DNA from: an uncultured virus (IMG/VR IMGVR_UViG_3300003690_000004) | Taxonomy: Duplodnaviria > Heunggongvirae > Uroviricota > Caudoviricetes | DNA length: 20,000 nucleotides | IMG/VR virus record: IMGVR_UViG_3300003690_000004 | Direction: 5' to 3' (one strand) | Shown: one piece after another, positions 10,783 through 19,936 of the stretch | How positions within the stretch are numbered: position 1 is the stretch's first letter | Layout of the letters: each line of letters starts with the position of its first letter | Notes under the pieces: generated by a model | Databases searched by the model: none | Told to the model about the DNA's origin: nothing | What the model saw: the letters and a program-made list of their open reading frames with translations, nothing else | Made by a program: the position numbers and the translations under genes

Positions 10783-10937
10783 GTTCGGGTCCCTCCGAAG
10801 AAACACTTCATCGAGCAGAAGACCTTCGCATCTAAGGCGTTTTGAAGGGCGGGGCCATCGCCACGCATCCCGAAGTCACAAGTCTGCCCACAGCGACAGC
10901 ATACGCTGGGTACCTCTTGGTTAACTACTCCGCTCAT
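10779..10937 (-). CDS. Leaderless small Zn-finger protein missed by the ORF track (52 aa, MSGVVNQEVPSVCCRCGQTCDFG...VFCSMKCFFGGTRT)
   Basis: ATG exactly 19 nt after GTTAAATACT; CxxC...FCSxxC; stop overlaps the next ATG. Confidence 0.75.
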   Translation of the reverse strand: MSGVVNQEVPSVCCRCGQTCDFGMRGDGPALQNALDAKVFCSMKCFFGGTRT

Positions 10938-10956: not shown

Positions 10957-11000
10957 AGTATTTAACTGTTGTGATTTCGTGATTTATTAAAATTGTAACC
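10957..11000 (-). promoter_or_regulatory. Promoter cassette A copy 2
   Basis: GGTTACAATTTTAATAAATCACG-N11-GTTAAATACT. Confidence 0.85.
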
Positions 11001-13617: not shown

Positions 13618-13960
13618 CGGACCCCTCCCTGCCGATTTTGACGCTGTGACTGCTCGCGCCCAATTTGAGAATCGTATCAACGGTCGCGCTTCGGAATCGT
13701 TCGCATCCATCCATCATGGCCTTGATATCATCGTCGGTGAGTCTAATCATCGCGCCGATGCGCGTCCCCGTTGAGCCGATTATCTCGATGTGCGGGGATA
13801 TGGTACCGAGTACGATACGGGCCCTGACGGTGCCCTTCTTGAAGGGCAGTCCCCTCTCGGGAAGGTCAATCATTATCGGGGGTACATCCGAAAAGGTCAT
13901 AGGGCCCCGATAAGGATGGAGCCTGCCTGCTTCGCGGTGTTCTTTCTGTGAATCAACCAT
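13607..13960 (-). CDS. Hypothetical protein (MVDSQK...)
   Basis: GGGGAGGG RBS before ATG at 13960. Confidence 0.65.
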   Translation of the reverse strand: MVDSQKEHREAGRLHPYRGPMTFSDVPPIMIDLPERGLPFKKGTVRARIVLGTISPHIEIIGSTGTRIGAMIRLTDDDIKAMMDGCERFRSATVDTILKLGASSHSVKIGREGSDGA

Positions 13961-14339
13961 TATAAATTCCCTCCCCAATTAAATCCTTTCGGATATCTCG
14001 GAATGGTTTTTCAGTGAATGAAGTGTCGCGCTCAATCGGGAGCATCATGGAGCCCGGGGACCGCGCTACTGCATTGAATTCTGCCATTGAAAAGTAACCC
14101 CACTCACCGAAGGTGCCGTCCACGAATCCGAACCATGTTTGATTTTCTTCATCCCACTCGGTCGCGTACCAAGTCCAAGAAGACCACGGATGGAAATACT
14201 TGGCAACGATGATAGTCCCGTCAGGAAATCGTTCGGAGGAATCCTTGAGTCGTGGGTCCTGCCCGCCTGCTCTCCAATCCTGCGAGCCGTGCCTGTCGAA
14301 GCGTTGCTTTAGGTACTTCGGCATCAATTTTGCTTGCAT
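13953..14339 (-). CDS. DUF2958 family protein
   Basis: VAKYFHPWSSWTWYATEWD...FGFVDG..EWGYFSMAEF...PIERDTSF is the characteristic pattern; AAAGGAGG RBS. Confidence 0.85.
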   Translation of the reverse strand: MQAKLMPKYLKQRFDRHGSQDWRAGGQDPRLKDSSERFPDGTIIVAKYFHPWSSWTWYATEWDEENQTWFGFVDGTFGEWGYFSMAEFNAVARSPGSMMLPIERDTSFTEKPFRDIRKDLIGEGIYNG

Positions 14340-14687
14340 AATTTTTCCTCCTTTGGGTTTCCGGCGACCCCCCCGCCGCCGAGCGGAGGACGCCTATTCC
14401 GGCCCTTGAGAAGCAGGCGGGCCGCTCCCTCTCTCCCCGCCGGAGTGCAATCGGGGACCCACGCCCGCCGTCCGGGCTGTGCGGGATTTGCACCCGCGGT
14501 GATGGGCCCCGAGCCTGTAACTCCGAGATTGCGCCACGCTCCAAACGCTCGCATAACCCGGCTGTCGGGGAGAGGTGAAGCGGGTACTCCCGCATTCCCG
14601 ACACCACACAGAATCACATCTGCTCTCACGGAATTAACCGGAGTATGGCTATCGGTTCGGGAGGGAGCCACCCCTCCTTCTGCCTCT
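14340..14687 (-). ncRNA. Candidate structured RNA or 5' leader (~350 nt)
   Basis: Starts at the predicted TSS of cassette copy 3 without ATG; many nested stems with G-U pairs; T-loop-like hairpin GCGGG-TGCAAAT-CCCGC. Confidence 0.6.
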
Positions 14688-14706
14688 AATTAACCATATA
14701 TGTTCA

Positions 14707-14750
14707 AGTATTTAACTGTTCCGATTTCATGATTTATTAAAATTGTAACC
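14707..14750 (-). promoter_or_regulatory. Promoter cassette A copy 3
   Basis: GGTTACAATTTTAATAAATCATG-N11-GTTAAATACT; 14687-14750 closely resembles 10937-11000. Confidence 0.85.
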
Positions 14751-14882
14751 CGGGCCCCGCTCCCCCGTGTGCGCCCGCAGGCACACACTTTTTCCACGAC
14801 CGTTTATCTGTCGCAGGCCACGCAGATGTAAGAGGAAATCAGGTCCGAATTTGTCCCGAGGGGGAGGCCGCCTCCACAGACC

Positions 14883-15149
14883 CTACAAACCAGCATTGAT
14901 TTTTCCCTCCCGAATTTCTTCATCTCGTGCGCGTGCTTGAATGAATGCTACGCGGTCGCGCGTCACCCACACGCGGGGGTTACGGGTCCCACATTTTCTG
15001 CATCTGCTTTCCTCGGTGCCGGGGCGCTGTGTGACCCACAGCCATAGATGACCGCAACAATTCGCCCGTCGCTTTTCGCAGGTCGGAGCAATTTTGATTG
15101 GGCCCACACGCGAGGACGCGGGGAAAACCCAAGTCAGTTTTTCTGCCAC
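14883..15149 (-). CDS. Small Zn-ribbon protein
   Basis: GAGGTGA RBS, GTG start; CCGH...CRKCG. Confidence 0.7.
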   Translation of the reverse strand: MAEKLTWVFPASSRVGPIKIAPTCEKRRANCCGHLWLWVTQRPGTEESRCRKCGTRNPRVWVTRDRVAFIQARARDEEIREGKINAGL

Positions 15150-15152
15150 GGT

Positions 15153-15293
15153 TCACCTCTCGGGCGGCCACGGGGTCGTCGGCGCCGAGAGAATTCGGCG
15201 GATGAAAAACATGGTGATGGCCCACTTGAAGCCGGGCGTACCCACGATGACGGGGGGGTCCATCCGCATGAGGATGAGAGCCTCAGTTTTCAT
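15153..15293 (-). CDS. Putative 46-aa protein missed by the ORF track (MKTEALILMRMDPPVIVGTPGFKWAITMFFIRRILSAPTTPWPPER)
   Basis: Fills the gap between neighbours; its stop lies in the RBS of the next gene. Confidence 0.5.
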   Translation of the reverse strand: MKTEALILMRMDPPVIVGTPGFKWAITMFFIRRILSAPTTPWPPER

Positions 15294-15558
15294 CGGAGTC
15301 CCCCGGCATGGTTAATTCCAACCACCGCTTTCTTGAGATGATTTCCCACTCCTTCGGGTCGAATCCGACCTTCGGAATCGCTTCCCAAGTCGGCTGTTTT
15401 CTGCCACGGAATTCTATGAAGCCTCGGAAGAGATAACCCGCCCGCGTCACGACTTCGCGCTTGAATTCGGCCTCCGTTTTATTCCAAAGGATGCTCGTTA
15501 CGGGCATTCGTGGTTGCCCCCACTTGGTCAAGTGGGCGACGGGAATCTCAGCCTTCAT
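15283..15558 (-). CDS. Hypothetical protein (MKAEIP...)
   Basis: GGAG RBS before ATG at 15558 (alternative ATG at 15570). Confidence 0.65.
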   Translation of the reverse strand: MKAEIPVAHLTKWGQPRMPVTSILWNKTEAEFKREVVTRAGYLFRGFIEFRGRKQPTWEAIPKVGFDPKEWEIISRKRWLELTMPGDSDEN

Positions 15559-15646
15559 TTTTCTCCGCATTTTCGGCCTCCGTTTTATTCCAAGCCTTAA
15601 GGCACGAGTGGCAGATAGCACGGTCTTGGCATAGGCACTCAGTCAT
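15548..15646 (-). CDS. Putative 32-aa Cys-rich peptide (MTECLCQDRAICHSCLKAWNKTEAENAEKNEG)
   Basis: GGAG RBS right after the predicted TSS of cassette copy 4. Confidence 0.55.
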   Translation of the reverse strand: MTECLCQDRAICHSCLKAWNKTEAENAEKNEG

Positions 15647-15676
15647 TTTCGGCTCCGAATATCCATGTTTTGTGCA

Positions 15677-15720
15677 AGTATTTAACGGTTCCGATATCGT
15701 GATTTATTAAAATTGTAACC
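15677..15720 (-). promoter_or_regulatory. Promoter cassette A copy 4
   Basis: GGTTACAATTTTAATAAATCACG-N11-GTTAAATACT. Confidence 0.85.
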
Positions 15721-15893
15721 GGCTGTCGGGGAGGAACCGAAAATTCGCCCGGGGGTCTGCGGACTCTCTCTTTTTTAACGGCTCCCGATTTCTTCCGAAG
15801 GAAATCTGTGCCTGATTTATTATACTTTTCTGCGGTGGTTTTTGTAACCCGGTAGGTGTAAGCCGCGAGGGCGCCGCGCGTGTGGGCTCCCCC

Positions 15894-15914
15894 GGTTACA
15901 ATTTTAATAAATCA
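15894..15914 (+). promoter_or_regulatory. Inverted copy of the cassette A upstream element, without TATA
   Basis: GGTTACAATTTTAATAAATCA on the plus strand; GC-rich where TATA should be. Confidence 0.7.
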
Positions 15915-15959
15915 GCCTGCGAATCTGCGGGCGCGGGTTACAAAAAACGAATCCACGAT

Positions 15960-16331
15960 AAAAAAAGGGGGGGTCGAGGGGGCTCACCGTGTCGGCTTTC
16001 CCCGGTTTCCCGGGCACCCCCCCGACCTTATGTGTCCGCTCATCACACGACCTCGCGCCGATGATTTCAGCCCCCGTAATCTCCCTCGGTTCCGTGCGCG
16101 ATTCCGGAGCCGTTGCCCGTGCATCTCAACCTTCGGATTTTCGCCCGGTGGATTCCTCCTGAGAATCCCAGCCTCATCTGATACAGGGGTTAAACGGTTT
16201 CCCATTCTCCCTCGCACACTTCGCCGACAGATTTTCGGGGATTGATTTCATCAACGGTCGCTCGTGTGGTGCGGCCTATTGCTCCGCTCTCGCGGAGGAC
16301 ACGCGTGTGACGGGCTCACGGACCTCGATAA
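15960..16331 (-). ncRNA. Candidate structured RNA 3' of DUF932 (~370 nt)
   Basis: GNRA-capped hairpins, long-range closing stem, terminal stem followed by T7. Confidence 0.6.
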
Positions 16332-17462
16332 TCAGAGGTACATTTCCGTGAGAATTCTCATCGCCTTTTCCTTGCGTTGCTTACCGTGCCTGAACACGGC
16401 CGATTCGTCGCGGCGAAGTTTTGCCTTCCCCGCATTCTTTCCGGACTTGATGATTCTTGCTTCGTGGTCAACCCACTCGGTCACGACATTGATTCCCTGC
16501 CATGCCGTGTCGTTCATCTGTCCGATTCGGTTTGACTTCCGCTTCTTGATGCTGTTCAATTCCTTGAGTCGCCTCTTGGATGAAGTCACCAATTGCCCGC
16601 GCTTGCTGTGTTTTTCGCCCGCGCTATCCTTCTCCGGATAGGTCGAAAGGTCGAAGACCTCGATGAAAAATTCGTCCATCGCTTTCTTCGTCATTTTGAC
16701 TTGGATTAGGTCGTTGGCAATTACGCCGAATTCCTCGTGCCATTTCATAGCCCAACCGAAAGCCTCTCGCACATCATCCACGCGGTTCATCATATTCCCC
16801 GTGTGCCTGATGTTGAAGATTTCTTCCCTCGATTTTGCCTCTCCCAGCGCCATGCTGAGAGTGTTTTGGCATACAACGCGAACGGTGGTCGGAAGGACCT
16901 TGACTGAGCCTGTGCCATCGTGACTGTTCGTGAGCAGAACATAGAGGTCTTGACGGTCATCGTCGCCGATGTTTATTGAATGTGGAATTTTCGCCAACAT
17001 CCAAACCTTTTCCCCCTGCCCTAGAGCCCCCGCACAGTCAAAATTTGCCTCCTGCGATTGTACTAATTCGTCCATGAAAGTGAAGGCGTCGTGATTTTGG
17101 AGCGGTACATAAACCCGCCCAACAGCCTTCCCCTTGCGCGAGAGGGCGCGGCGGTCGCCGCCACCCTTTGCCTCACGATAGGTCATATATGTCTCAGGTG
17201 CTTCCAAAATTTCGGTTCGCTTGATAACGGGCGTCCCGTCCTTCTTTCGCTTGATGCGTCCTGTTGGGGTCCGCGCATACACGGGGACCTTTGCCTCAAG
17301 CGGCACCTTATGGACCGTCCAATCGAGATGTGCTAATTCAAGGCATTCCTGAGAAGTCATCAAGCCCGGGGTCGTTACCCCGAGGCGGTGCCACGGGGTC
17401 TGTCCCGAGCCGGTGACTACTTCGTAATTCCCGTCTGCGTCAACGCTGATATTTGCTACCAT
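16332..17462 (-). CDS. DUF932 family phage/plasmid protein (TIGR03299-like)
   Basis: TPWHRLG, LDWTV, YVPLQNHDAF, GALGQGEKVWMLAK, YVLLTNSHDGTGS, RVVCQNTL, IRHTG, TAWQGINVVTEWVDH motifs; AGGAG RBS. Confidence 0.9.
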   Translation of the reverse strand: MVANISVDADGNYEVVTGSGQTPWHRLGVTTPGLMTSQECLELAHLDWTVHKVPLEAKVPVYARTPTGRIKRKKDGTPVIKRTEILEAPETYMTYREAKGGGDRRALSRKGKAVGRVYVPLQNHDAFTFMDELVQSQEANFDCAGALGQGEKVWMLAKIPHSINIGDDDRQDLYVLLTNSHDGTGSVKVLPTTVRVVCQNTLSMALGEAKSREEIFNIRHTGNMMNRVDDVREAFGWAMKWHEEFGVIANDLIQVKMTKKAMDEFFIEVFDLSTYPEKDSAGEKHSKRGQLVTSSKRRLKELNSIKKRKSNRIGQMNDTAWQGINVVTEWVDHEARIIKSGKNAGKAKLRRDESAVFRHGKQRKEKAMRILTEMYL

Positions 17463-17820
17463 TGTTTTCTCTCCTGTCGGTTTGACTAGCGGCCACTTGA
17501 TGCTCAGGCGAGGCTCCCGAGCCTCACACCTTTCGCGTCACCGTACCACGGCTTCGGATTGGCACCTTTGGGAATTCCAGCCCTCATTTTTCTCCCCTCG
17601 GAGGTTCGCCGGTGGTCCTGTACCGATTGCAGTCGGTACGCCACCGACGGCCCCCCTTTGAGTGTACGCAGTCCTGCCCGGCCCTCGCGGGTCCCGGGGT
17701 CCTTTGCCTCGTACCGGAAATCAGAAGAATTCGCTAGTCGGATTCGTTACTGCCTTAGACGCTAAGGTCGTAGGCAGGAGGGTTTCTGAGGGGGGTATTT
17801 CGCCGCCCTTTTTCGCCCTC
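17463..17820 (-). ncRNA. Candidate structured 5' leader/RNA upstream of DUF932 (~360 nt)
   Basis: Begins at the predicted TSS of cassette copy 5; multiple hairpins; 8-bp long-range pair GACTAGCG/CGCTAGTC. Confidence 0.55.
17504..17587 (-). CDS. Possible 27-aa leader peptide (MRAGIPKGANPKPWYGDAKGVRLGSLA)
   Basis: GGGGAG RBS; start region nearly identical to that of the gene at 15558. Confidence 0.3.
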   Translation of the reverse strand: MRAGIPKGANPKPWYGDAKGVRLGSLA

Positions 17821-17839
17821 AGTTATCCATCCCTCTACT

Positions 17840-17883
17840 ACTATTTAAGGCTTCCTATTTCATGATTTATTAAAATTGTAACC
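17840..17883 (-). promoter_or_regulatory. Promoter cassette A copy 5
   Basis: GGTTACAATTTTAATAAATCATG-N11-CTTAAATAGT. Confidence 0.85.
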
Positions 17884-18433
17884 TGCGCTTATGAATCCTG
17901 CGGTTGATTTTGTAACTGAGCCCCCCACGCGGGCGTGAGGGATTTGGACCTCTAATATCCTGTTATCCGGCCGCGTCACACGCTCACGCGCGAGAGGCTC
18001 ACCTAATGAACATTCTGTTACTTAGTGTGCCGGAGGTTACTTAGTATCTATTTGGAAGTCCACCCCACCTCCCTCCCTGTGGTCTGTTTTGAGTGGTGGA
18101 TTTTACCGAACCGGTTCGGTTTTGTAACTCCGATTTTGTAACCGGGGGTTTCGCCCGTGGGAAACCACAAAATGTAACCTAGAAATTGTAACTTAGGATT
18201 TCAGCCCCCGAAATTTGAAATTTAGCAGACGGCGTTTTTGTAACCTCTTTAAGGCCCGTCGAAAAGAGCGAAAAAATTGTAACCGCGATTTTGTAACCTC
18301 GGCGGGGGCGCGGAGCCGGTGGCGGGAGTTACAATTTTGTAACTTGGTATTTTTTGTAACCCAAAACTCTTTAAGCCCCGAAATCCTGAGTTACAAAATT
18401 GTAACCCACGCAGGTTACAAAATTGTATCTTCA

Positions 18434-18455
18434 AAACCGTTGTACTGCGAGCCTG
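18434..18455. repeat. Motif B copy 2
   Basis: AAACCG-TTGT-ACTGCGAGCCTG. Confidence 0.75.
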
Positions 18456-18638
18456 TTTTCAAAAATTGTAACTTGGGAGCGAGCCCCCCCTGTACTCCCC
18501 TACTCAGAGCCACCGGCGCCGTCGAAGTTACAATTGGGGCGCAGTACAACGGTTTTTTTTGTAACCCCGATTTAGCGTAAAAATAACAGCCTCCCATGCG
18601 CATAAAATCCGAAGGCGGGGGTTGTTCATCGGCGTCAC

Positions 18639-18682
18639 AGTATGTAAAGGTGCCGATATCGTGACTTATAAAAATTGTAACC
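18639..18682 (-). promoter_or_regulatory. Promoter cassette A variant, leftward
   Basis: GGTTACAATTTTTATAAGTCACG-N11-TTTACATACT. Confidence 0.65.
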
Positions 18683-18726
18683 CCGGAATTGTAACCGCGA
18701 CCCGAAGTACAAAATTGTAACCCCCA

Positions 18727-18770
18727 AGTTACAATAAGCATAAGTCACGATATCATCACAGTGATATACT
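18727..18770 (+). promoter_or_regulatory. Promoter cassette A variant, rightward
   Basis: AGTTACAATAAGCATAAGTCACG-N11-GTGATATACT, then 19 nt to ATG 18790. Confidence 0.75.
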
Positions 18771-18789
18771 ATGCCGACGAGTCCCAACC

Positions 18790-19020
18790 ATGCAAACAGG
18801 ACCACAAGACGAGCCGATGACCGGACAGAACCCGACAGTCGAGGCCAACGGCTACATCATGCGATGGGAGCCAATGGACCCGTACCTTCACGATAGACTG
18901 TCGCTCGGAGCGGGTCAAGGCGACCGCATCAGTACCCCGAACGCCACCACGACGAACGACCTCGGAGAGTGCCCCGATGAGAACGACGGGTGCCCCTCCG
19001 TACAGTGGGGGGTGGCATGA
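18790..19020 (+). CDS. Leaderless acidic hypothetical protein (76 aa)
   Basis: ATG at the same TATA distance (19 nt) as the gene at 10937. Confidence 0.65.
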   Translation: MQTGPQDEPMTGQNPTVEANGYIMRWEPMDPYLHDRLSLGAGQGDRISTPNATTTNDLGECPDENDGCPSVQWGVA

Positions 19021-19193
19021 TGGCGGCGATAGATGACGCGCTTCAAGTCGTGCTGTGCCATAACCTCGTGTGGCTGATGGCATACACGGCGCTTGACTTC
19101 GGGGGGTGGTTGTGACCGGCGTATTGTAACCTCGGCAAATTCGGCCTTTTGTAACCGGGGCCCCTCTTTTCCTATCGAAAATCGGCGATATTA

Positions 19194-19249
19194 ATTGTAA
19201 CCCGGGTATTGTAACCCGGGTATTGTAACCTCGGAATTGTAACCGGGGA
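19194..19249 (+). repeat. 4 x 14-bp tandem repeat ATTGTAACCNNGG(T/A)
   Basis: Units at 19194, 19208, 19222, 19236. Confidence 0.9.
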
Positions 19250-19715: not shown

Positions 19716-19809
19716 TTCTCTCTTTCCTCTTTTTGAGAGGGGGACCCTCTTTTGACGGGTCTTTTTCCCTCTGAGGCCGGATAGGCGGAGTGCTGAAAAT
19801 GGACCTTAA

Positions 19810-19863
19810 TGCAGAAATGTTACTTAGTGCAGAAATGTTACTAGGTGCAGAAATGTTACTTAG
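19810..19863 (+). repeat. 3 x 18-bp tandem repeat TGCAGAAATGTTACT(TA/AG)G
   Basis: Units at 19810, 19828, 19846. Confidence 0.9.
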
Positions 19864-19936
19864 TGTGCCCGGACTCACCTATTCCGGATTCCGGAAGCAA
19901 AGTCGAAAACACTTATCAATAAATCCGGATTGTGGA

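Follow-up and report, generated by a model that had tools for sequence, protein, structure and literature searches.

A GC-rich non-coding leader between a repeated promoter and the DUF2958 gene of an uncultured tailed phage, with a predicted helix at the ribosome-binding site

Introduction

The leader of the N gene of phage lambda contains nutL and, over the ribosome-binding site of N, a hairpin sensitive to RNase III. In phage HK022, the putL and putR RNAs (about 70 nt) consist of two stem-loops and are alike at both sites. RNA thermometers (e.g., ROSE, fourU) are elements of 40-100 nt with characteristic mismatches, which sequester the Shine-Dalgarno sequence. In tRNA, the T-loop (consensus UUCRANY) is carried on a 5-bp stem and is followed by the 3' strand of the acceptor stem and CCA. 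Furthermore, genes of the DUF932/DUF2958 type accompany single-strand promoters in plasmid leading regions, and both genes are of a kind that we take to be found in the early-entry regions of mobile elements.

Here we describe a region of 348 nt upstream of a DUF2958 gene in a 20,000-nt stretch of DNA from an uncultured tailed phage (IMG/VR record IMGVR_UViG_3300003690_000004; this whole stretch is referred to below as the window). A first-pass annotation, made from the letters alone, had proposed that this region encodes a novel structured RNA or a regulatory leader, perhaps a tRNA mimic. Like the lambda N leader, the region is a long structured leader behind an early promoter, and its 3' part is predicted to pair with the ribosome-binding site of the first gene. 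Unlike that leader, it has no sequence or Rfam relation to it, no boxA/boxB-like repeat is seen between the two leaders of the phage, and leaders at this place are about 350-520 nt long with a variable central domain. What recalls HK022 put is that folded RNAs are predicted close to the promoter for more than one early transcript, whereas this phage's two leaders agree only in about 13 nt at their start, and no terminators were found downstream (minus strand, 13900-16400). As in RNA thermometers, a pyrimidine stretch complementary to the Shine-Dalgarno sequence is predicted to pair with it; however, the predicted melting is gradual and the helix is embedded in a large domain. One hairpin has the 5-bp stem and the 7-nt loop of a tRNA T-arm, but there is no cloverleaf, acceptor stem or CCA.

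The single-strand promoter concept (Frpo) of plasmid leading regions is described in passages of PMC11541004, in which neither DUF932 nor DUF2958 is named. With elements of the Frpo/ssi kind the region shares a structured, non-coding character, a length of a few hundred bases and a position ahead of early-entry genes of a mobile element; it differs in that there is no -35/-10 pair within a hairpin, the fold of the DNA is not significant and the element is a tailed phage.

The locus, the phage and its relative

The minus strand is the predicted direction of transcription for nearly the whole window, in which matches to known families are few. The DUF2958 gene heads a series of about 10 small ORFs on the minus strand, which reaches as far as the next promoter copy at 11000. 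The gene and the region before it are as follows:

13953..14339, minus strand: DUF2958 gene, 128 amino acids (Pfam PF11171, E 1.5e-10)
14340..14687, minus strand: non-coding GC-rich leader, 348 nt, 64.9% GC (codon scores, GC, fold statistics), no terminator-like site found on the minus strand

The Pfam scan of 54 window ORFs returned three matches below 1e-3 or near it, namely DUF2958, DUF932 (gene at 16332-17462) and a weak DUF7532 match; matches to PHROGs in the window were solely to families of unknown function. A DUF2958 profile found nothing credible among the PDB sequences (E of at least 0.036), and a full-text literature search for "DUF2958" returned nothing on function.

The DNA runs that contain sequence of the window are labelled as metagenomes of seawater, of marine sediment or of hydrothermal vents. 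Four of them, one of which may be the source of the window, contain at least half of the sampled window words, and the leader region is covered at 95-100% likeness by contigs of 4 runs from 4 studies. No RNA runs were listed among the sequencing runs with window sequence.

The promoter 21-mer described below was found at a single locus of the viral contigs searched, in a 37,865-base IMG/VR tailed-phage contig (hereafter the relative). It carries a phage portal protein as well as a 2009-amino-acid collagen-repeat protein, and it is because of this portal protein that the element is regarded as a tailed phage. A 19-mer of the promoter occurred in 70 stretches of metagenome contigs; those related by blastn were 4 loci from 2 contigs. 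As both contigs are 99-100% identical to the viral relative, there is one distinct relative. Among genome contigs, the 19-mer was found in 26 stretches, none of them related by blastn, and a 24-mer from the conserved element at 15960-16046 led only to the same relative in viral contigs. Another candidate with a 40-nt match (L055) was rejected as an unrelated AT-rich sequence. A blastn search of 14200-14900 against phage and plasmid collections gave no match, the DUF932 protein as a single query found nothing in viral contigs, and tblastn of the DUF2958 and DUF932 proteins against cultured phages returned only distant matches (<60% identity).

The order at the locus is the same in the relative, where the promoter element follows a small zinc-ribbon ORF and is separated from DUF2958 by 517 nt without genes. 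The DUF2958 proteins of the window and the relative are 74% identical in a protein alignment. An alignment-based scan revealed 47 viral DUF2958 loci, and the other 46 encode proteins with 35-54% identity. Collecting the regions upstream of these homologues, as the first-pass annotation had suggested, brought up a comparable long leader in the one relative and none at the other 46 loci, where the upstream gap is at most 291 nt and GC does not rise. The leader belongs to the phage lineage rather than to the DUF2958 family. Note that one distant DUF2958 locus has a plain promoter of the TTGACA/TATTATACT type 40 nt before the gene (read by eye).

The promoter element

The leader is preceded by a repeated element, whose parts at this locus are:

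14730..14750, minus strand: invariant 21-mer GGTTACAATTTTAATAAATCA, the upstream half of the repeated promoter/operator element, with 7 copies in the window (alignment A1)
14686..14729, minus strand: promoter-proximal conserved part with the box TTAAATA (14715-14709) and the motif ATGGWTAAYT (alignment A1)

Six of the seven copies of GGTTACAATTTTAATAAATCA are exact and one has 2 mismatches, whereas 200 shuffles contained none. The 21-mer opens with 8 nt that correspond, in reverse complement, to the TTGTAACC repeats at 18117-19247. The promoter copies align over about 64 nt, i.e., the 21-mer, the box TTAAATA and then ATGGWTAAYT; the last motif can be read as a 3-codon mini-ORF, ATG GTT AAT TAG (14697-14686). 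No sigma-70 consensus was found at the promoter copies. Further copies are located at 11000 (the next one after the DUF2958 operon) and at 17883 (before the DUF932 leader), and the 21-mer also precedes the DUF2958 leader of the relative.

It had been claimed from the sequence that the transcript would begin with AGAGG at 14687, where a sister promoter has the ATG at 10937. Indeed, alignment A1 places the two in the same column, and a gene ATG occupies this column at two sister promoters, the one at 10937 in the window and a copy in the relative (L001, ~2315). In both cases it is the start of a small zinc-ribbon-like ORF, which suggests that the messages made there are leaderless. Judged from this alignment, transcription of the DUF2958 leader probably starts near 14687, which would place the TTAAATA box 22-28 nt ahead of the start.

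Coding status of the leader

Four ORFs overlap the leader (14324-14671, 14394-14609 and 14221-14607 on the minus strand, 14334-14693 on the plus strand; 71-128 codons). None of them has a match in Pfam or PHROG, and their codon log-odds are all negative (-0.07 to -0.21); the 11 training genes range from 0.10 to 0.45, and 14 further small genes from -0.05 to 0.39. In the relative's leader every frame is interrupted by stops, and tblastx similarity is confined to the promoter; an ORF common to both leaders was not found. A natural variant also bears on the coding status:

14613..14632, minus strand: site of a 16-nt deletion (7+1+7+1) in a single contig of run X4, which also has SNPs at 14608 and 14633

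The length of this indel is not a multiple of 3, and the SNP at 14608 alters the GTG start of ORF 14394-14609. The deletion removes the small hairpin GCAGA-UGUGAU-UCUGU; with a contig depth of 2.87 it could be an assembly error. In the contigs of the 4 DNA runs, 14340-14607 contains 0 variants against about 1.6 expected from the flanks, which is too few for a test of selection.

That one of the four ORFs is a real gene is thus extremely improbable. Their frames are open, and AAGGAGG stands just upstream of the GTG at 14671; however, this Shine-Dalgarno core is merely 1-2 nt from the GTG, the codon scores are negative without any family match, in the relative each frame is broken by stops and tblastx gives no match, and one strain contig combines the 16-nt indel with an altered GTG at 14609. 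Codon-level conservation of ORFs 14394-14609 and 14324-14671, which would have spoken against an RNA, was looked for and is absent. The leader 14340-14687 is non-coding. No terminator-like site was found on the minus strand in 13900-16400, i.e., none lies before the ribosome-binding site of DUF2958. As the leader is non-coding, stands behind a repeated promoter and runs into the ribosome-binding site without a terminator, "regulatory leader" is the best reading among those originally offered.

Composition and predicted fold

The GC content of the leader is 0.649, compared with 0.518 for the window, and the GC maximum of the 20 kb is the 400-nt window 14201-14600 (0.635). The same trend holds for the leader of the relative (0.508, with 0.446 for the whole contig); in both phages the leaders before DUF2958 and DUF932, four in all, lie 6-13 GC points above their genomes. 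The motif GCCGGAA occurs 2 times in the leader and 8 times in the window overall.

On the minus strand, the minimum free energy (MFE) of the leader is -171.2 kcal/mol (z -2.61), reached by 0 of 100 shuffles; for the plus strand it is -152.4 (z -2.19), a value reached by 3 of 100 shuffles. Elsewhere in the same DNA, 31 windows of 348 nt have a mean z of -0.29 (sd 1.15), and none of them folds below -135.2. Since one of these 31 reaches z -2.6, the whole-leader fold is only mildly unusual. The 120-nt windows within the leader give minus-strand z values from -1.30 to +0.45; the single hairpins are what a sequence with 65% GC gives, and the excess stability comes from long-range pairing and GC content rather than from exceptional hairpins. 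The shuffling comparison is borderline significant for the leader as a whole, and the 120-nt folds inside it are no better than shuffles. The relative's leader has a z of -2.48.

All strings on which the proposed fold had been built were found at their minus-strand positions:

14660..14677, minus strand: 5' hairpin P1, GGAGGGG-TGGC-TCCCTCC (string check; MFE)
14593-14580, minus strand: hairpin GCGGG-AGTA-CCCGC (string check; centroid only)
14574-14566 with 14439-14431, minus strand: long-range complements CTCTCCCCG and CGGGGAGAG (string check)
14525-14520 with 14446-14441, minus strand: complements CGGAGT and ACTCCG (string check; not in MFE)
14512-14507 with 14456-14451, minus strand: enclosure TCGGGG with CCCCGA (string check)
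14497-14481, minus strand: T-loop-like hairpin GCGGG-TGCAAAT-CCCGC (string check; MFE)
14477-14463, minus strand: hairpin GCCCG-GACGG-CGGGC (string check; MFE)
14394-14363, minus strand: 3' hairpin (string check; MFE)

The fold as drawn in the first-pass annotation was recovered for the most part. The 5' hairpin, the T-like hairpin, the GCCCG hairpin, the G/C-rich enclosure, an 8-bp CUCUCCCC/GGGGAGAG pairing and the 3' hairpin are all present in the MFE structure, whereas the CGGAGT/ACTCCG pairing is absent from it and GCGGG-AGUA-CCCGC appears only in the centroid.

The many inverted repeats could also point to an element acting as DNA, i.e., a single-strand promoter of the Frpo/ssi kind, an origin or a packaging site, and genes of the DUF932/DUF2958 type are known to accompany such promoters in the leading regions of plasmids. 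We give this next to no credence. Folded as DNA, the plus strand has a z of only -1.67 with 7 of 100 shuffles as good, and the structure is branched instead of forming a single long hairpin; 14340-14687 contains no sigma-70-like -35/-10 pair, a conserved conventional promoter element is present upstream, the middle of the region is not conserved, and the portal protein of the relative indicates a tailed phage, which delivers double-stranded DNA. A Frpo/ssi single-strand promoter in particular, which would have a long DNA hairpin that rebuilds -35, -10 and UP elements, was rejected on the grounds of the missing sigma-70-like pair and the branched DNA fold.

Comparison with the leader of the relative

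The two DUF2958 leaders occupy the same place, from promoter to gene, and measure 348 nt in the window and 517 nt in the relative. Their nucleotide identity is 82% for the promoter with the first ~14 nt and 75% for the last ~60 nt. For the central ~300 nt, no counterpart in the relative was found by blastn, tblastx or MAFFT (alignment A3). The central domain and the helix that follows it are:

14409..14655, minus strand: variable central domain, which holds the T-loop-like hairpin, the GCCCG hairpin and the long-range CUCUCCCC/GGGGAGAG pairing
14346..14390, minus strand: predicted helix occluding the ribosome-binding site, in two parts (partition-function fold)

The two leaders have in common about 13 nt at the start, the base of a 5' hairpin and a predicted two-part helix in which the ribosome-binding site is paired. 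The base of P1 is GGAG/CUCC in the window and AGAG/CUCU in the relative, a single G-C to A-U double change that is weak evidence for pairing; the tip is replaced in the relative by a hairpin of ~57 nt. In the predicted helix of the window, UCCUCC (14390-14385) pairs with the Shine-Dalgarno sequence GGAGGA (14351-14346; P 0.84), and UCGGCGGC (14382-14375) pairs with GUCGCCGG (14368-14361; P 0.79), with a 6-nt loop between them. In the relative, ACUUCU is predicted to pair with AGGAGU at a probability of about 0.55 and UUUGGCGGU with GCCGCCGGA at one of about 1.0, ~275 nt being inserted where the window has the loop. Between these two sequences, the differences within the helix keep the predicted pairing: one G-C pair has become U-A, and the several single changes, of C to U and of U to C, stand opposite G.

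Statistical tests of this helix gave mixed results. A 5' strand fitting both halves occurred in 92 of 5000 dinucleotide shuffles for the window (1.8%) and in 174 of 5000 for the relative (3.5%), for a pattern defined after the data were seen. The best duplex between the Shine-Dalgarno region and the upstream leader was equalled by 465 of 1000 and 822 of 1000 shuffled leaders, so its energy is not unusual. Mean predicted pairing of the Shine-Dalgarno sequence is 0.90-0.93; in the comparison across genes it is 0.93, against a median of 0.56 for 16 other window genes, two of which reach at least 0.90. On heating, the predicted pairing declines gradually and without a switch, being 0.96 at 25 C and 0.42 at 80 C.

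The strings AUGCGGGA and ACCCGCUUC are present in both leaders. They form a local hairpin in the window and close a 230-nt domain in the relative, and their order relative to the Shine-Dalgarno helix differs, so that the architecture is not simply colinear. In the modelled folds, this placement hints at module shuffling rather than at a fixed fold. What is conserved between the two leaders is, according to the predicted structures, a scaffold occluding the ribosome-binding site and not the T-loop-like junction to which attention had first been drawn.

These data also bear on a simpler explanation, according to which the region has no function and is a spacer or the remnant of either a decayed gene or a GC-rich fragment that was acquired, with hairpins that are a by-product of 65% GC and selection on the promoter and the ribosome-binding region only. 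The unconserved middle, the local z-scores near 0, the non-significant duplex test and the strain contig with the 16-nt deletion are all consistent with it. However, the region is the GC maximum of the window, and all four leaders exceed their genomes in GC content; in both genomes, compact as they are, a gene-free stretch of several hundred bases persists at this position, the leaders as a whole have z values of -2.6 (window) and -2.5 (relative), and protein similarity was found in no frame. We consider a spacer unlikely.

The T-loop-like hairpin and known RNA families

The likeness to a T-arm holds for the 5-bp stem and for a 7-nt loop with U1, C3, R4 and A5, but fails at position 2, where the loop UGCAAAU has G and thereby departs from UUCRANY. 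The two strands of the window (40 kb) contain 2 hairpins with a relaxed UNCRANY loop on a 5-bp stem, and those of the relative (76 kb) contain 3; such hairpins arise by chance about once per 20-25 kb of strand. In the predicted structure, the hairpin sits together with a second one within a three-way junction, and no acceptor stem or CCA adjoins it. ARAGORN found 0 tRNAs or tmRNAs in the window and 0 in the contig of the relative, and Rfam 15 gave 0 matches at gathering score in either. With E values up to 10, no tRNA, tmRNA or riboswitch appeared; the best sub-threshold matches (E of at least 2) are noise, and the region belongs to no family found by this search. A riboswitch was rejected as a candidate, because the central domain is not alignable with the only relative and has no Rfam riboswitch match.

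A separate trans-acting structured RNA cut from the leader, e.g. a tRNA-like decoy built on the three-way junction, is accordingly very unlikely. The 5-bp stem with its UGCAAAU loop (14497-14481) does lie inside the junction in the MFE structure too, and the neighbouring genes DUF932 and DUF2958 are presumably of the early-entry kind. Nevertheless, ARAGORN and Rfam are negative, the loop deviates at position 2 and has chance counterparts, the acceptor stem and CCA are absent beside the T-like hairpin, no 3' end signal precedes the gene, and the domain is missing from the relative. The proposed tRNA mimic found no support in these comparisons. As a speculative and still less probable variant, the central domain (14409-14655) might be a fast-evolving RNA, either released or acting within the leader, that serves as a decoy or sensor for a host factor; such a factor would be, for example, a tRNA-directed defence or modification enzyme. 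If true, this would explain the place before early-entry genes, the GC enrichment and the replacement of the domain in the sister phage.

The leader before the DUF932 gene

A second leader of this kind follows the promoter copy at 17883:

17463..17823, minus strand: sister leader before DUF932, holding a 27-codon ORF (17504-17587)

It consists of about 355 nt that are gene-free save for this ORF, which has a Shine-Dalgarno sequence. Its GC content is 0.598 (0.538 for the DUF932 leader of the relative) and its whole-length z is -1.26. Unlike in the DUF2958 leader, the first ~235 nt can be aligned with the relative. In the RNAalifold consensus of the DUF932 leaders, 41 of 41 pairs are kept, 11 of them by double changes, compared with 0-3 for partners slid by 1-3 columns; this count is inflated, since the structure was predicted from the same two sequences. 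Even so, the modelled folds show that the lineage characteristically has long, putatively structured leaders behind this promoter. The DUF2958 and DUF932 leaders start alike (GAGGCAGAAGG and GAGGGCGAAAAAGG, respectively), each running into a hairpin; shared k-mers revealed no motif common to the window's two leaders beyond the first ~13 nt.

The similar starts might indicate a promoter-proximal RNA that modifies RNA polymerase (antitermination of the HK022 put kind) or protects the 5' end, acting on the whole operon and not on the translation of DUF2958. The position directly behind the promoter, the run of about 10 genes with no promoter copy until 11000 and the paired 5' end of the leader in the MFE structure are in line with such a role. 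On the other hand, the two leaders have nothing in common beyond ~13 nt, no minus-strand terminators to override were found in 13900-16400, and the central domain is not conserved; we find this explanation decidedly unlikely. An HK022 put-like antiterminator proper would show similar two-hairpin RNAs behind each early promoter and downstream terminators that are read through; it was rejected, as the window's leaders agree only in their first ~13 nt and no minus-strand terminator-like sites were found in 13900-16400.

Interpretation

The reading that we favour, with a probability of roughly one half, is that 14340-14687 is a cis-acting folded 5' leader of the DUF2958 mRNA, in which a predicted scaffold pairs the ribosome-binding site. 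The mRNA would start near 14687 at a phage-specific promoter (the 21-mer at 14750-14730 plus TTAAATA) and would continue into DUF2958 and about nine further small genes. The scaffold would be made up of the 5' end with the base of P1 and the two-part helix at the 3' end (UCCUCC/UCGGCGGC with GGAGGA/GUCGCCGG). With the ribosome-binding site of DUF2958 paired in this way, translation and/or stability of the early message may depend on the opening of the helix, for which temperature, a protein, an RNA or a ligand are candidate signals. The central domain including the "T-loop" junction would be a lineage-specific, fast-changing module, possibly a sensor or a stabiliser.

The region is real as a phage leader, being non-coding, rich in GC and moderately structured, and leaders of this kind are already known in outline. 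The value of the analysis is mainly negative, in that the tRNA-mimic idea is unsupported and the core flagged at first is not demonstrable as a conserved fold with the present data. The locus adds one case to the growing list of promoter-coupled phage leader RNAs, and it opens no long-standing question. If our reading is true, a clade of uncultured tailed phages from hydrothermal vents and marine sediments places long, GC-rich folded leaders behind the copies of one conserved promoter, and before genes typical of the first DNA to enter a cell (DUF932, DUF2958). Control of early gene expression would then take place on the RNA, through modules that differ rapidly from one relative to the next.

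A conserved non-coding element and a second long leader around the DUF932 gene

Three features lie around the DUF932 gene (16332-17462, minus strand); the first two align with a distinct related tailed-phage contig, hereafter the relative:

15953-16046, minus strand (12898-12991 of L101, a stretch of the relative): conserved non-coding element of ~95 nt
17463-17823, minus strand: second long leader, before DUF932 and behind the promoter copy at 17883
15894-15914, plus strand: oppositely oriented copy of the promoter 21-mer

The DUF932 stop codon lies ~290 nt upstream of the element, in which the two phages share 89% identity; their genes share only ~70% (DNA level). Folded on the minus strand, the element gives two hairpins enclosed by a 12-bp stem, with a run of C and seven T residues behind it, and the 120-nt segment from 15961 gave a z of -3.1 on the minus strand versus +0.05 on the plus strand. 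The element looks like a terminator; judged from the two sequences, its conservation is far above what a terminator would need.

The 21-mer copy at 15894-15914 diverges from the copy at 15720, and no convincing plus-strand gene follows it. A transcript started at this copy would be antisense to the conserved element and, further on, to the 3' end of DUF932.

The DUF932 leader can be aligned with the relative, and 11 of the 41 pairs in its predicted consensus fold carry double changes. As a conserved structured RNA, it is a better candidate than the GC-rich leader upstream of DUF2958 (14340-14687, minus strand), which the first-pass annotation had singled out as a structured RNA.

Promoter-proximal motif and repeats

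Further repeated or conserved features are as follows:

14686-14697, 17819-17830 and 15643-15666, and ~1457-1468 of L001 in the relative: conserved promoter-proximal motif, readable as a tiny ORF
1593-1621 and 2948-2976 of L001: exact inverted repeat of 29 nt
19797-19865: three tandem 18-nt repeats, AAATGTTACTTAGTGCAG-like, near the window's right end
18117-19247: TTGTAACC-type repeats in dense arrays, with families of 8, 4 and 4 copies

At four leaders, the promoter-proximal motif reads as ATG, two codons and a stop; at 15643-15666 there are seven codons, and the terminal ATGA overlaps the start of the next gene (15646). The motif could be a mini-ORF, or merely part of the promoter. The 29-nt inverted repeat flanks the stretch between the relative's two promoter copies, and 27 nt of its first copy are missing from one metagenome contig (L008).

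Reverse-complemented, the TTGTAACC-type motif reads as the 8 nt with which the promoter 21-mer begins. This suggests that the promoters and the iteron-like region 18117-19247 are recognised by one DNA-binding protein. This region may be an origin or control region.
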